Source: a virus (taxonomy: Duplodnaviria > Caudoviricetes). From it: a stretch of DNA of 64,000 nt. Shown piece by piece: positions 32,639 to 61,909 of the stretch. Location of the stretch: positions 33,400 to 97,399 of IMG/VR virus record IMGVR_UViG_2576861683_000003; one strand, written 5' to 3'. The first letter of the stretch is position 1; each line of letters opens with the position of its first letter. The translations under genes and the position numbers were made by a program. Below the pieces are notes generated by a model. That model was not told the origin of the DNA and ran no database searches. It worked only from the letters and a program-made list of their open reading frames with translations.

Positions 32639-35600
32639 TTAACGGCCTCCTCGAGTTGCATTCCAAATTAAACCACCCGGCCTAATATCTTTGGACATGA
32701 ACTCTCGGTAACGACTATCAACAAATCGGCCAATCTCCGCACCAAACTGCTCGAATCCATTCGTTGATTGAGTTTCTGAATTACCGTTACCGTCAATGGT
32801 AATGTAAACCTGAGGTGCTGAAGTAGCGCCCTGATTATTACCACCAACAACTCTAACCCCTAAGTTGCCATCTGCGGTTCGGGTTAATGGCATTATAGCC
32901 TCACTCCCCGCCTCACCCATGAGTCCGAGATTAGGCGCACCACCCTTAGCAAAGGCAAAATAAGTGGGTGAGCTAACGATTTGATTACTATAAGAACCAA
33001 GGCTCTCTGAACTATGCACCCCGCCTTTAGCGTGGGCAACACCACCTAAAAATCCACCAACAGCGCCCATCCAACCACCAGCACCTGCCATTGTATTAAG
33101 GCTATTCACTATTGCCGCATTAATGAGTACATTCTGAATAGATTTCAACACGCTAACAGACCAATCTTTCCAGCTGGCTTTATTACCATTTAGTTTATCG
33201 CTGATAGTATCAACCATTCCTCCCATTGCATTTTGAACAACAGAGGCTGTTTGAGCAGCATAGTTACCACTTTCCTGAACCCAATCTTTCATTCCACGCG
33301 TTATACCTGCGGTCCAGTCAGATTCAGCGAGCGCTATATTTCGATACTTAAGATCTAATGCATCTAATGCTTTAGATCTGGCTTCAATATCTTCTGTTTT
33401 CTTTGCAGATTCATTGTAGATACGGTCTATTTGCTGGCTTTCTTCAAAGTAGCTTTTTTCTCTTGAACTCATGCTATTGGTTTGAGTCGCTAACGTAGCT
33501 TCATCGTTAAATTTGACTGCGGCTTCTTGCAGTTTTTTACGAGCCTCTTCCATATCACGATGCTTTTTGACGGCATCATCTGCTTTTTGTGTCCATTCTG
33601 CGAGAGCGACAGATGAACGTTCAATCGCTTCTCTTTGCTTATCCGTCCATTTAGCCCCATTTTCATGTGATGCTGCATAAAGAGAGGCGGCTTTTTCGCC
33701 TTGTGAAGCTCTAACCTTCTGAACCTCTGTTGCCACACTTAAATCTGCTATCTTCCGCTCATATTGTTCTGCGGTTCTTTCAGCTTCTTTTTGCGCTTTT
33801 TCATAGGCGCTTTGTGTTGCCTTTCCTGTTTTAAGAGATTCATTTAGCTTTTCTCGATTTTGAAAAGCTGTCACTAGGTTATTAATATACTTCTGACGAT
33901 TTTCGGCATGCTCTGGCGTGTTGGTTAACCCCACATCATCGGCAGAAAATTCGGCCTGTTTAATAACTCTAGCTTCACCCGTTAATGAAGATAGGATTTT
34001 CTCTCGCTCAGAGTTATTTATTAGCGTTTGCTGTTTATCATCTAGTGGTGCATTAGGAATACGCATAGGAATATTGACTAGTGCCTGCCGAGTAGCGAGC
34101 ATATTGTTACCAATATTCATGATCTGATTGAACTTCGTTTGTTCAGCATTCATAAACAACAAGGCTTGATGGGCTTTATTTTGCTCTGATGCCTGTTGTC
34201 GAATTAAGAATACTCGTTGTTCTTCAATATTTTTTAATGCAGACTGAATTCCCGTCGATTTCTCTTGCATTTGAATGAGGCGTTCTTTTTCTGCTGCAAG
34301 ATCTTTTTCAGCTTCAGCTAATTGATTAACAACATCAGCTTCACTAGTTAGATGATTTATCATGAAATCACCCATCTTAGGACCAGGTGATGCAAGTATC
34401 TGCTGGTAACCTCTAATTTGTTTCTCTAGATCATCAACTTTACCTTTTTGCTCTGTAACTAGCCTATTTTGTTCAGTGAGTGAATCATTCGTTTTATCGT
34501 AATTGTCAGATACATCAGGAAGAGACATCTTTCTTAAATTCTCTTGTACCTGATTAATAGTTTCGGCATATTCCCGAGCAGAACGCCGCGCTTCCTCTTG
34601 ATTCTGATACATAATGTACCAAGCAGAAGCACCTGCCATAACAAGTCCGGGGATCCCACCTATTAGCCCCATAGCACCGCTCATTAATCGAGATCCTGTC
34701 GATGTGATTCGATTAAGATTCTCTTGGGCAGTACGCCTTGCTGATATATTTCGATTTAATGTTGCTTGCGCTGAAGCTAATCGACGCTCAGCCAATGCTT
34801 GTTGCTCGGCACTTTGTGCTGAAGCTCTAGCTTGCTGTGCTCGATAGACTGCTGCCCTTGCTCGAGCCGTTGATATTTTAATACCTTGTAACTGAGCTTG
34901 AGCTAAGGCGATTTCATTTTTTGTTGCACGCGCAACCCCAATGGTTGCATTCGCCACACTCGTTGTCAGCCCACCAAAATAACGCGCCAGACCTAGACCA
35001 ATTAACACACCAGAAACAGAGGCTATACCATCAATATTGTTCGCGATCCCCTCCATTGCGGTTGATAGTGTGCGAGTAGCACCTGATGTTTCATTAACAT
35101 TGCCGATCCATGCCATGAACGCATTTTCAATCTTCTGTGCAGACCCACTTACCGTGGCTGGCAATTGCTCAAACTCGGCTCGTAACTGTTGCGTATTCGT
35201 CAGGATAGGAACAATTTTATCCATCGTGAGTAGTCCATTTTGCGACATTTCACGCAGGCCACCAATCGTCGTTCCCATACCATCAGCTAGCATTTTTGCT
35301 AATCGCCCACCATTCTCCATGACGGCATTAAATTCTTCACCACGAAGAACTCCCGAACCTAATGCTTGGCTTAGTTGTGTAATAACAGAGCTGGTTTCTT
35401 CAGCACTGGCGCCAGAGAGCTTTAATGCGGTAGCAATGGTTTCGGTGACTTTCGCAACATCACTTGAGGCATAACCCGCATCACGCATGGATTGTGCAAC
35501 ACGGCTGTATAGATTCGTATTCGCTGCAATCGATGTGCCCGTTCTTTGGCTCAACGTCATTAACTCTTGCTGTGCTTGTTTAAAATCTTCCAGCGAGGTA

Positions 35601-56938: not shown

Positions 56939-57397
56939 TTATTTTTTCTTCCTATGTAATGAGATAAATGCATTAACAAATGCACGACCACTTGCTATTA
57001 CGCGATCTAGCATTACGTTAAGTTGTTTTTCTTCTTCACTATCAACAACGCCATCTTCTAAGCTTTTTTCTAAAAAAATTGCCAGCTCGCCTTGTTTTGA
57101 GCCAACTTTGTTGTGTAGACGAAATAATTCAGGCTCATCTATCTCGTCGGGTTTAATACGTTCCACCAGCAACATCCGGCTTTCTCTTGCAATAAATTCA
57201 GCGAACAAAACAGTTTTAGAAATATCTTGCATTGCTAATAACTCGTTTAAATCAAATGAACGACAGCCGTTTTTTTCATACAACTTGTTGTTGAATGAAG
57301 TTAACGACATACCCAAAGCGCCCGCCATTGCCTCACGACCGCCTTGTACTTCGTCACACATTTCTTTAACTATCTGTTTTATTGATTTGTTACTCAT
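56939..57397 (-). CDS. YmfL-family regulatory protein (cII position)
   Basis: GGREAMAGALGMSLTSFNNKLYEKNGCRSF. Confidence 0.85.
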   Translation of the reverse strand: MSNKSIKQIVKEMCDEVQGGREAMAGALGMSLTSFNNKLYEKNGCRSFDLNELLAMQDISKTVLFAEFIARESRMLLVERIKPDEIDEPELFRLHNKVGSKQGELAIFLEKSLEDGVVDSEEEKQLNVMLDRVIASGRAFVNAFISLHRKKK

Positions 57398-57676: not shown

Positions 57677-57738
57677 ATGCGTTATACGCATATTACCACA
57701 CAGATAAATATGCGCAATACGCTTTGTGTTGTACGCAT
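57677..57738. promoter_or_regulatory. OR operators (three 15-bp sites)
   Basis: ATGCGTTATACGCAT (57677-57691), ATGCGCAATACGCTT (57710-57724), TTGTGTTGTACGCAT (57724-57738). Confidence 0.75.
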
Positions 57739-58415: not shown

Positions 58416-58465
58416 TGGCCTGACGATACGTTTTAGGGTTTAGTAATAAAAAACAACATGAGGAT

Positions 58466-59233
58466 ATGGTGGTGATAAGAGTTGGCAGACTACATCCCGG
58501 TGGGGAGCATATAGGAGAGGGACAACACAACCCAATAAAAGGAATTGCATCATTTCAAATAGGTGATGACATAGAGGAACTTGTTGTATTTGCTAAAAAA
58601 TTATCAGATAGAGAAATGTCTATTGAGATTATTTGTGCAACTTTAGGTAGAAAAATTGGATTATCAATACCAGAGCCTGTTATTTTGTTTGATGAAGATG
58701 AAAAGCTATTTTTTGGGAGTGTAGATGCTGAATATCCAAGTCTTGCACATTATATAAAAGATACTAAGGATCCCTCTGTTGAACGTAAACTATCAACATG
58801 GAATGGGTTAAATAATGCAGCATTCTTTGATGAATGGATAGCCATGGATGATAGAAGTAATGGAAACCTATTATTCGATGGAGAAGAGTTTATTCTCATA
58901 GATCATGAATCAGCTATTCCATCAGGATTGCAATCAGACCAATCAGGAATTGATTTTTACTGCAACCAATTACTCGACATATTGTTAGGCGAATTAGATA
59001 GAAATAATGAATTAGAAGTTCAAAAATTAGCTAATGATGCTAGAGCCTGGTCACACAAAAACTCTGACGGACCGACTAGTTATACTGATAGTTTTTTATC
59101 AAAAACAATTGCAGAAAAAAATAGAAATCAACTGATGTCTTTTTTATCATCTCGTATAGAAATGTTAGGTACCATGCTTTATCATCAAATAAAGCCAAAT
59201 CAGATACAGATGCAATACGATGCTAAATCTTAA
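58466..59233 (+). CDS. HipA-like Ser/Thr kinase
   Basis: Gly loop GEGQHNP, FAKK, EIIC, FDEWIAMDDRSNGNLL, LIDH. Confidence 0.85.
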   Translation: MVVIRVGRLHPGGEHIGEGQHNPIKGIASFQIGDDIEELVVFAKKLSDREMSIEIICATLGRKIGLSIPEPVILFDEDEKLFFGSVDAEYPSLAHYIKDTKDPSVERKLSTWNGLNNAAFFDEWIAMDDRSNGNLLFDGEEFILIDHESAIPSGLQSDQSGIDFYCNQLLDILLGELDRNNELEVQKLANDARAWSHKNSDGPTSYTDSFLSKTIAEKNRNQLMSFLSSRIEMLGTMLYHQIKPNQIQMQYDAKS

Positions 59234-60101
59234 TGAACTATTAAACACAGCACCCAAAACACCTGCACTTACTGGTGAATGGGTATCAGTGTATCTAGAA
59301 CCAATGATTGGCTCTGGAGAAAGGCTTACGATTGCAGTTGCAGCACAATGTACAAACAGACTTATTGATGTAAGACCTGCTATACGGCAAGAGGTTATCG
59401 ATGTCATGTTCGGCCATCGTAGTAAAGCGTTTAACTCTATGATTGAAGTTATAGCAACGAGCCTTAAGCTACATATAGAAAATACTGGCTCATTTCATAC
59501 TTGGGTTCCACCTATTGGCGGAGTAACATTAGGAAGAGTAAAAAAAGCCGCTTCTAAAGACTTGATTGGTATATTAAGACAGGCAATAACATTATCGTCT
59601 AGCCTCTCAACTATGTTAGATGATAGGTCTAATCTTAATTCCGTAAAAAAACAAAATAAAACAGAAAAAGATAGATGGACCACTCAGTTACAACAAGCTG
59701 TGATAGAGTCTGACACAAAAAGACAGGGCTATTTTAATGCTAAGTATGATTTCAAAAATAAGCGAATGGCCGCATCCGTATTTTATTTGAGTGAACATGC
59801 AGCAATCAATACTGGCAAGCTATTGCCTAGTTCATTGAGTAATTTAGTCGCACACAGCAAAGCTAAAATAGCAGATCTGTCATTAATAAAAAGCCACCCA
59901 GACTTATTACATAGAGATACTCACGAATTTATTTTGTTCAAGCCTAACGATGACGATCCTCGTTATAATGACAATGAAATTGCTAAAGTAAATAGTGCAT
60001 TTCTTATCCTTAAAGATTTAGCCGAAAAAGATGAAATAATACTGACTGCTGTTACAGATGTTCAAGAAGGCGCAAACCGCATACTAAGAACAGCAGCATA
60101 A
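59220..60101 (+). CDS. Kinase partner, DUF3037-like N-terminus
   Basis: VYLEPMIGSGERLTIAV resembles DUF3037 as recalled; 14-nt overlap with kinase. Confidence 0.55.
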   Translation: MLNLNELLNTAPKTPALTGEWVSVYLEPMIGSGERLTIAVAAQCTNRLIDVRPAIRQEVIDVMFGHRSKAFNSMIEVIATSLKLHIENTGSFHTWVPPIGGVTLGRVKKAASKDLIGILRQAITLSSSLSTMLDDRSNLNSVKKQNKTEKDRWTTQLQQAVIESDTKRQGYFNAKYDFKNKRMAASVFYLSEHAAINTGKLLPSSLSNLVAHSKAKIADLSLIKSHPDLLHRDTHEFILFKPNDDDPRYNDNEIAKVNSAFLILKDLAEKDEIILTAVTDVQEGANRILRTAA

Positions 60102-60106
60102 CTACT

Positions 60107-60133
60107 CCAGCCCTCCCCTCGAGGGCTTTTTTG
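60107..60133 (+). terminator. Terminator of cI-kinase operon
   Basis: AGCCCTC-CCCTC-GAGGGCT-TTTTT. Confidence 0.8.
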
Positions 60134-60245: not shown

Positions 60246-60280
60246 ATGCGCTTGACGCATTTGTGTAATATGCATATACT
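60246..60280 (+). promoter_or_regulatory. PL promoter with OL operators
   Basis: TTGACG-N17-TATACT overlapped by ATGCGCTTGACGCAT and TTGTGTAATATGCAT, matching the OR sites. Confidence 0.8.
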
Positions 60281-60559: not shown

Positions 60560-61033
60560 TCAATGGTGTGGAGAGGTAGGTAGATCACCAGCAATCCAAG
60601 AGATAAGTGATTCGAATTTGGATAATTCAGTGTCATCGTCTAAGTCTAATTGAATCGATGCTCTTTTGAATGCGGGGTTGCACAAGGCACCAAGAGTAGA
60701 AATATCACTTTGTAGAAGTTTAATTAGCTGTTTATCGATTTCTTCAGCATCTAATTTCTGACTTTCTATATTGTACTTTAAAGAAAGATATTTTTTAGCT
60801 CTTGAATTAGCTAAGTAAGACGTTTTACCAGGTTGGTAAATAAACTGAAAAGCAGATAAAGCGGCAACCAATAGACCAGCAGTGAATAAGTTGAAGCCAG
60901 ACGCCATAACAGAGCTACCAAGAACAATTAATGAAAATGAAATGAATTTATCAACTCTATCGGAAAAAACACTTTGCATTTCATTTAAATAGTAAGAATA
61001 CGTGATTGTGAAAAGAGGATCTTGGTGGCTCAT
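60560..61033 (-). CDS. SLATT-like 2TM membrane protein
   Basis: Helix, TM hairpin, then P...A...Y..L pattern; AAGG RBS. Confidence 0.55.
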   Translation of the reverse strand: MSHQDPLFTITYSYYLNEMQSVFSDRVDKFISFSLIVLGSSVMASGFNLFTAGLLVAALSAFQFIYQPGKTSYLANSRAKKYLSLKYNIESQKLDAEEIDKQLIKLLQSDISTLGALCNPAFKRASIQLDLDDDTELSKFESLISWIAGDLPTSPHH

Positions 61034-61045
61034 TTTAATACCTTA

Positions 61046-61159
61046 TTATCTTTGTGGTTTTGGTTGAGGTGCCGGTCTCCTAGGTACTTGACCATCAGGT
61101 GTTGGTTTTTCTGATGGTGCTGGTTTTCTAGGTAGCTGCCTTTCTTCGTAAGTCATCAT
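61046..61159 (-). CDS. 37-aa Pro/Arg/Lys-rich peptide
   Basis: MMTYEERQLPRKPAPSEKPTPDGQVPRRPAPQPKPQR; ends 12 bp before the 2TM gene; start uncertain. Confidence 0.55.
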   Translation of the reverse strand: MMTYEERQLPRKPAPSEKPTPDGQVPRRPAPQPKPQR

Positions 61160-61375
61160 TAACAGTTCTTCTGTTTTGTTGGGGTGTATTAATAATAACC
61201 AATTTCTGTCTGTTGGGGAATAGCAGAAACCACCACCGCCTGAGGTGGCAAAATAATCAGGCACAATATTTGAAGTGTGAATTCATTTTTATTTTTTATT
61301 AGCGACATCAGGGAAATTTAATCTCGATTAATTCGAGAGGAATTCTTATTACCTAAAAATTGTGTGGAGAGAATA

Positions 61376-61909
61376 ATGTCTTATATTGCAACAGCAACAA
61401 ATAAACATTTCTATTATCTCGATGTACGGATCGAAGATATAGATATTCAAGATATTGCCAATGGTCTTGCTAATGAATGTCGCTTTAATGGACAGATTGA
61501 TAATTTCTATTCTGTTGCTCAGCACTCGGTATATGCAAGTTATTTAGTTGCACCTGAATTTGCTTTAGAGGCCCTACTTCATGATGCCAGTGAAGCCTAT
61601 GTAAAAGATCTGCCATTACCGCTTAAAAAGCTATTGCCTGAATATAAATTAATTGAATTACGTGTAGAAAAGATAATCCGCAAAAAATTTGGGCTACCTG
61701 AATCTAAATCTGATGCGGTTCATTTTGCTGACTTAATGATGCTAGCCACAGAAAAGCGTGATTTAGAAATTGATACAGGTAGTAACTGGTTAATGCTTGA
61801 AGGTATTCCAGCAAGTGATTTTGTTGTTAACCCACTAACACCCCCACAAGCAAAAGCCTTATTCCTCCGCCGTTTTAATGAACTTTATAAGGGAACTGAA
61901 AATGGCTAA
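61376..61909 (+). CDS. HD-domain phosphohydrolase (YfdR/YfbR-like)
   Basis: [27 protein letters not shown]. Confidence 0.88.

Follow-up and report, generated by a model that had tools for sequence, protein, structure and literature searches.

A kinase and partner gene pair beside cI of a lambdoid phage, likely a deeply diverged branch of the HipAD defence system

The established function of lambda RexAB is the exclusion of other phages via abortive infection, and 933W Stk is a prophage kinase that is activated by superinfecting phage. The two-gene cassette analysed here, which encodes a divergent serine/threonine kinase and a two-domain partner protein, sits in the same slot beside cI in a 64,000-nucleotide (nt) stretch of DNA from a virus of the Caudoviricetes (positions 33,400 to 97,399 of IMG/VR record IMGVR_UViG_2576861683_000003; this whole stretch is hereafter called the window). 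As with RexAB and Stk, expression together with cI is presumed, and the likeness is one of position and function only. The predicted effector chemistry is unlike that of RexB and there is no relationship by sequence or family: searches of Pfam, PHROGs and PADLOC returned no RexA or RexB family match for either the kinase or the partner.

The closest described system is instead the pairing of a HipA_2 kinase with a DUF3037 protein. This pair is the PADLOC candidate PDC-M66, and was validated by DefensePredictor as DS-6 and renamed HipAD (PMC13092281, which refers for the name to Brenes & Laub 2025, Cell Host Microbe 33:1004). DS-6 protects against phage, and defence is abolished in a D139A mutant of DS-6A (PMC13092281, supplement). 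Furthermore, Retron-Sda1 contains a stand-alone HipA/DUF3037 defence, for which deletion of HipA abolishes defence and deletion of the DUF3037 gene is toxic (PMC12548924). Canonical HipBA of Escherichia coli K-12, in which HipA phosphorylates GltX and HipB is a helix-turn-helix (HTH) antitoxin (summarised in PMC13092281), shares with the window cassette a distantly related kinase superfamily and the combination of a toxin kinase with a neutralising protein. It differs from the cassette in several respects: HipA is twice as large as the window kinase, the kinase gene comes first and the partner gene second, and the cassette has neither the HipA_N, Couple_hipA and HipA_C domains nor a HipB-like HTH antitoxin.

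Taking together kinase homology, gene linkage, position and the published phenotypes of relatives, the most likely reading of the cassette is a lysogen-expressed abortive-infection module, made of a kinase toxin and a partner antitoxin, that would represent a diverged HipAD branch in the rexAB position. We assign this reading a probability of about 0.68. An earlier note on this DNA, made from the sequence alone, had put the pair forward as a candidate for an uncharacterised defence system, for which it could name no characterised counterpart. This claim of novelty fails because the HipA_2 and DUF3037 pair has already been validated (PDC-M66 = DS-6/HipAD, also found in Retron-Sda1), and because HipAD sits in the same cI-adjacent slot of phage PhiR5_1; the cassette is of a kind already described. 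The anatomy given in the note is all present, namely cI, a 50-bp gap free of hairpins, a kinase with intact motifs, an overlapping 293-amino-acid (aa) partner and one terminator before the operator OL, with no HipB-like small HTH open reading frame (ORF) between cI and the terminator. Its view of a lysogen-expressed, phosphorylation-based exclusion module would also still be the best reading.

One slot, two cassette types

The kinase and partner genes stand where lambda has rexAB, between cI and OL/PL, and are bracketed by OR and OL, in agreement with the rexAB-equivalent slot that had been proposed. HipAD is found in this position in Escherichia phage PhiR5_1 (PV340545.1), where genes annotated as 'HipA toxin' and 'HipD antitoxin' overlap by 4 nt and the gene order is cro, cI, HipA, HipD, kil, gam, bet, exo. 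PhiR5_1 HipA scores 258 bits on HipA_2 and 53 bits on PDC-M66A, and HipD scores 85 bits on DUF3037 and 57 bits on PDC-M66B.

PhiR5_1 was compared with an E. coli prophage (L004). The two are 96-98% identical in nucleotide sequence over the replication genes and the region from kil to exo, and 90% identical over the C-terminal half of cI; from the cI stop to about 10 nt beyond the cassette, they share no similarity. In this interval, the prophage carries a kinase gene and a 53%-identical homologue of the window partner in the place of HipAD. The swap is clean (L004:5130-6890 against L079:3127-4855), and its two breakpoints fall at the stop codon of cI and immediately beyond the cassette. Because the flanks are near-identical and the interval is dissimilar, the two cassette types are alleles of one slot.

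The likeness extends to the build of the two cassettes. In both, a HipA_2 kinase of about 250 aa with the same catalytic Asp is followed by an overlapping partner of 275-293 aa for which two domains are predicted, the C-domain with a restriction-endonuclease-like fold, and both are found between cI and the PL operon in lambdoid prophages. They differ in that no likeness in sequence could be detected between the window partner and HipD, DUF3037 or PDC-M66B, the relation of this partner to them coming from predicted structure only, and in that the window cassette would escape PADLOC and Pfam calling. On balance, the window cassette is likely to be a deeply diverged branch of the HipA_2-DUF3037 system (PDC-M66 = DS-6 = HipAD).

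The kinase and its partner

The window kinase matches Pfam HipA_2 (PF20613) at 32.1 bits with a cut-off of 27, compared with the 258 bits of PhiR5_1 HipA. HipA_2 is the sole HipA-type family found, with no match to HipA_N, Couple_hipA, HipA_C or Pkinase in Pfam, and the match in PHROGs is to an unnamed family. The PADLOC comparison suggested in the earlier note as a check for novelty gives a mixed result: a weak match of the kinase to PDC-M66A (24.9 bits, E 2.6e-6) and no match of the partner to PDC-M66B.

The catalytic residues are intact. More specifically, in an alignment of 16 kinase homologues that are 31-89% identical to the window kinase, K44 and E54 (the Lys/Glu pair), D129, R130 and N134 (the catalytic loop D129-R-x-x-G-N134) and the Mg-binding D146 are invariant, and the family carries the motifs FDEWIAMDDRxNGNLLF and LIDHE. 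For profile comparison, we used six genuine HipA_2/DUF3037 gene pairs from Gammaproteobacteria; hhalign of the kinase-family profile with the profile of these genuine DUF3037-adjacent kinases gave a probability of 97.2% (E 3.8e-11). Compared with the annotated 'HipA toxin' of PhiR5_1, the window kinase is 25% identical over the core by BLASTP (E 4e-5), and hhalign gave 94.8%. In the BLASTP alignment, D139 of PhiR5_1 HipA corresponds to the Asp of DDRSNGN in the window kinase. The Asp of DRSNGN had been singled out in the earlier note as the residue to mutate, and its counterpart in DS-6A is D139, the residue whose change to Ala (D139A) abolishes defence (PMC13092281). Judged by its sequence, the kinase is a divergent HipA_2 member with intact catalytic residues. 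Neither the kinase nor the partner, used as protein or as profile, gives a match in the PDB by sequence.

The partner belongs to a large, unannotated family of at least 748 representatives at 50% identity (E <= 1e-3), nearly all of them about 280-300 aa long. The family is not represented in Pfam, NCBIfam or PADLOC, and the window partner matches phrog_21150 (E 1.6e-89). Its likeness to DUF3037 proteins is found in predicted structure. In the AlphaFold2 model of the partner (predicted local distance difference test, pLDDT, 76.5), the N-domain (about residues 1-126) is made up of three strands, one long helix, a pair of short strands and further helices, the linker (128-150) is disordered, and the C-domain (150-293) has the element order a-b-b-b-a-b-a-b-a and a predicted restriction-endonuclease-like fold. 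Long DUF3037 proteins combine a DUF3037 domain at the N terminus with a DUF1829/restriction-endonuclease-like domain at the C terminus. The model of a genuine 276-aa DUF3037 protein (P0208, pLDDT 85.5) has the same order of elements: b-b-b, long helix, b-b and helix, then a linker, then a-b-b-b-a-b-a-b-a. The lengths are also close, with 293 aa for the window partner and 275-281 aa for HipD and long DUF3037 proteins.

Structure searches with the two models lead to the same place. Among viral structures, the BFVD entries A0A516KZK0 (5e-19 for the window partner, 2.3e-9 for the genuine DUF3037 protein) and A0A516KTX2 (1.1e-5 and 1.9e-11) are the top two matches of both, and the two C-domains match identical restriction-endonuclease-like chains. 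The two N-domains have in common a second-strand motif, P-x3-[ST]-G-E, which reads E-P-x3-S-G-E-R in the partner and P-F-V-E-T-G-E in DUF3037; residue E34 of the partner motif is conserved in 99% of the family. In the ESM Atlas, 27 of the 30 nearest clusters belong to one family set, some members of which carry DUF3037 (19% in the listed cluster), with a score of 0.95. Judging by these models, it is fairly probable that the partner is remotely homologous to long DUF3037 proteins.

The restriction-endonuclease-like fold of the C-domain was found by VIA-align only, and its best structural match is a catalytically inactive ERCC1 domain; Foldseek of the whole partner model against the PDB returned nothing at E <= 0.001. 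We considered an active nuclease in this domain and rejected it because the catalytic residues are not conserved: across 172 family members, the C-domain has no conserved acidic/lysine catalytic set or triad, and conservation is concentrated in the N-domain. The C-domain probably serves for binding and not as a nuclease.

Linkage, mode of action and alternative explanations

To follow the cassette through other genomes, we fetched 64 loci, 13 from genomes and 51 from IMG/VR. In nearly all of those with an intact partner ORF, the kinase gene is directly upstream, usually with an overlap of 4-14 nt. Departures from this linkage, which we take as obligate, are limited to a few copies that are broken, imprecisely called or at contig ends, two partner remnants without a kinase and one fusion. 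The remnants are truncated or split partner genes that retain the N-domain alone (L015:5980-6735, 125 aa, and L016:5887-6384, 165 aa; Pseudomonas silensiensis and a Nitrospirales metagenome-assembled genome), and could be decayed copies or a stand-alone form of the N-domain. The fusion, in Plasticicumulans acidivorans DSM 23606, is an in-frame ORF of 584 aa in which residues 65-283 form the kinase and 299-583 the partner (L018:5086-6840, the same as IMG/VR L065:4086-5840). As a natural fusion it argues for physical interaction of the two proteins as one complex, with the limit that it is known from one genome and that an assembly error is possible.

The cassette branch occurs in Enterobacterales, Vibrio, Alteromonas, an Acinetobacter phage and Betaproteobacteria, usually directly behind cI. 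Among 30 distinct genes upstream on the same strand, Peptidase_S24 is found in 16 and HTH_3 in 17, and these repressor genes represent many immunity types of Gamma- and Betaproteobacteria, Gilliamella and Caballeronia included. The order in Alteromonas phage P24 is HTH gene, kinase, partner. In the sewage isolate Acinetobacter phage vB_AbaS_qsb1 (PV107591.1; L002:4687-6609), the pair stands behind an Arc-like repressor gene and not cI; tail genes flank this region, which also has BRO and Arc-like genes. The cassette type is thus also seen in a slot like immI of P22.

We propose the following mode of action. The pair forms a two-gene prophage cargo cassette ('moron') in which the partner is translationally coupled to the kinase. 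The kinase would be a growth-arresting effector, and the partner would bind it and hold it off, while the apparently non-catalytic C-domain of the partner may read a nucleic-acid or phage-protein cue. A superinfecting phage would release or out-titrate the partner, and the freed kinase would phosphorylate an essential host or phage factor, such that the infection is aborted and the lysogen population is protected. The earlier note had offered two forms of the switch. Data on the relatives favour the one in which the partner holds off a toxic kinase, and do not favour the one in which the kinase neutralises a toxic partner.

A number of results weigh against this proposal and against the placement in the HipAD family. 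For the kinase, the HipA_2 match spans the core alone (residues 34-156), and this branch is without the K-G-x-G-x-G stretch that follows the Lys in canonical HipA_2 members. For the partner, the sequence comparisons are negative throughout. The window partner gives nothing at E <= 1 against Pfam DUF3037 (PF11236) and does not match PDC-M66B, and 60 diverse members of its family include none with DUF3037 (Pfam E <= 0.1) or PDC-M66B (PADLOC E <= 0.01); as a reference, DUF3037 gives 85-87 bits, and PDC-M66B 57-81 bits, for genuine partners (HipD and those of L026). No DUF3037 was found when the whole provirus was scanned in six frames. Comparisons with an alignment of 29 to 119 genuine long DUF3037 proteins gave an hhalign E of 0.47 over the full length, and at most 8 bits in hidden-Markov-model cross-searches, in which shuffles gave 5 bits. 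Compared by domain, hhalign gave E 0.16 (N) and 0.02 (C), values that we do not count because mismatched-domain controls are equally good, and BLASTP and hhalign of the partner against HipD found nothing. The AlphaFold models are of moderate confidence (predicted template-modelling scores 0.47 and 0.56), and the flexible placement of the two domains keeps the template-modelling scores low (0.37-0.48).

The remaining point concerns location. In Vibrio coralliirubri (L006:3390-6876), a gene for a patatin-like phospholipase and a 67-aa ORF directly precede the pair, which is not part of a prophage immunity region. Because the pair is outside immunity regions in some genomes, expression from the maintenance promoter of cI (PRM) is not intrinsic to the module, and the Vibrio location marks the cassette as a self-contained mobile module. 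This locus, near pheST, may be a small defence island.

The label 'DUF3037-like', which the earlier note had given to the partner, draws on predicted structure and language-model features only; no sequence model supports it. A single match of the window partner to PADLOC PDC-M01B (E 0.005) was taken as chance because it is absent from every other family member checked.

These negative results, none of them better than controls, together with the size and self-contained nature of the partner family, would suit a different history, in which a kinase of the same lineage has received a non-homologous, swapped-in partner and stands beside HipAD as a sister system that has a trigger and a control logic of its own. 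Toxin-antitoxin and defence modules do swap partners. We nonetheless consider this unlikely, because the similar length, two-domain layout and secondary-structure order, the common top Foldseek matches (E 2e-9 to 1e-5), the P-x3-[ST]-G-E motif and the ESM link to DUF3037 clusters form a combined likeness that is hard to get by convergence. If it were true, an independent sensor/antitoxin would link a minimal kinase of HipA_2 type with another phage cue, and the rexAB-slot alleles would comprise at least two mechanistically distinct kinase exclusion systems in lambdoid prophages.

The cassette might alternatively serve the phage's own life cycle, for example with a kinase that adjusts the physiology of the host, the fitness of the lysogen or the induction of the prophage, or be a plain addiction module by which the prophage is stabilised. 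A position in the immunity operon would mean lysogen expression, which also fits lysogenic conversion or addiction, and classical HipA kinases give persistence rather than defence (summarised in PMC13092281). Such a role is improbable, however, given that validated relatives defend against phages in a kinase-dependent manner (PMC13092281, PMC12548924) and that this cassette type takes the place of HipAD at one locus of a near-identical phage backbone, occurs also outside prophages (beside the patatin gene in Vibrio) and is found behind many unrelated cI alleles, like defence morons. Least probable of all, and to us very doubtful, is a reversal of roles, in line with the first form of the switch in the earlier note, in which the restriction-endonuclease-like C-domain is a nuclease toxin and the kinase controls the partner by phosphorylation: the unconserved acidic/lysine positions and the inactive ERCC1 domain as best match both speak against it, and in relatives it is loss of DUF3037 that is toxic and loss of the kinase that abolishes defence (PMC12548924). 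A diverged HipAD branch that acts by abortive infection therefore remains the reading that we prefer.

Layout of the immunity region and significance

The window contains a lambdoid immunity region whose orientation is the mirror image of the usual lambda map (Table 1). The exact palindrome ATGCG-N5-CGCAT occurs in two copies in the whole 64-kb window, one in OR and one in OL, which bracket the cassette unit. Weaker copies of the OR palindrome are found at 57710 (1 mismatch) and 57724 (2 mismatches). An operator-like site with one mismatch within the partner gene (60068-60082) was taken as chance because mismatch-tolerant matches occur at background frequency.

The 50-nt gap between cI and the kinase gene (58416-58465) is unstructured (RNA fold z = +0.76), and holds no terminator-like site and no promoter-like site scoring at least 9/12. 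The kinase probably starts at GTG 58472, which gives 253 aa. This start is favoured because ATG 58466 follows the Shine-Dalgarno GAGGA at a distance of a single nt, the homologues start with MIRxGRL, and the database entry has 253 aa. The partner ATG is inside the kinase gene, with an overlap of 14 nt. The strong terminator that closes the unit folds at -12.1 kcal/mol (z = -3.43). The cassette is probably co-transcribed with cI from PRM in lysogens. Its G+C content is 33-39%, compared with 41-44% in cI and the replication genes, so that it is somewhat AT-richer. When the region was compared at the nucleotide level with the phage collection, no match was found.

Table 1. Features of the lambdoid immunity region, in coordinates of the window
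Feature	Coordinates	Strand	Remarks
cII-like gene (Phage_CP76)	56939-57397	-	Same strand as the cro-like gene, after it
cro-like HTH repressor gene, 75 aa	57436-57663	-	Pfam HTH_3 E 1.5e-9; divergent from cI
OR-type operator cluster (putative), cro/cI intergenic	57677-57738		Exact ATGCG-N5-CGCAT at 57677
cI-type repressor, 218 aa	57759-58415	+	Pfam HTH_3 E 1.3e-11 and Peptidase_S24 E 3.1e-18; phrog_4 transcriptional repressor
Spacer between cI and kinase	58416-58471	+	Shine-Dalgarno GAGGA at 58460-58464
HipA_2-family Ser/Thr kinase, divergent; predicted toxin/effector	58466-59233	+	255 aa from ATG 58466
Two-domain partner, 293 aa; predicted antitoxin/sensor	59220-60101	+	ORF
Intrinsic terminator closing the cI-kinase-partner unit	60109-60127 and T-run, to 60133	+	7-bp stem, 5 G-C pairs, TTTTTT
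OL-type operator (putative) overlapping a PL-like promoter	60246-60280	+	Exact ATGCG-N5-CGCAT at 60246

The PL-like promoter (TTGACG-17-TATACT, 10/12) points rightward, toward the SSB and integrase genes; on the plus strand 3' of OL are small ORFs, the SSB gene and a lambda-type integrase. Just to the right of OL, the strand antisense to the PL operon holds two ORFs, of 157 aa and 72 aa (60560-61264, minus strand). They have no match in Pfam, and an earlier reading of the sequence had regarded this pair as a sieB-like exclusion candidate. A 181-aa ORF of the PL operon (61364-61909) weakly matches a YfbR-like family (HD-domain 5'-deoxynucleotidase) in Pfam, at E 0.0018, which does not reach the cut-off.

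What appears to be new, by sequence comparison, is a branch that has diverged to the point where Pfam and PADLOC miss its partner. The validation of HipAD/DS-6 dates from no earlier than 2025-26, and the cassette shows that the family extends well past Pfam, PADLOC and DefenseFinder-type models, with a hidden branch of hundreds of sequence clusters. The allelic swap of HipAD and this cassette in a near-identical backbone is a natural experiment for comparing specificity. Furthermore, the two partner families, taken as a sequence-structure pair, could show which features of the antitoxin/sensor matter.

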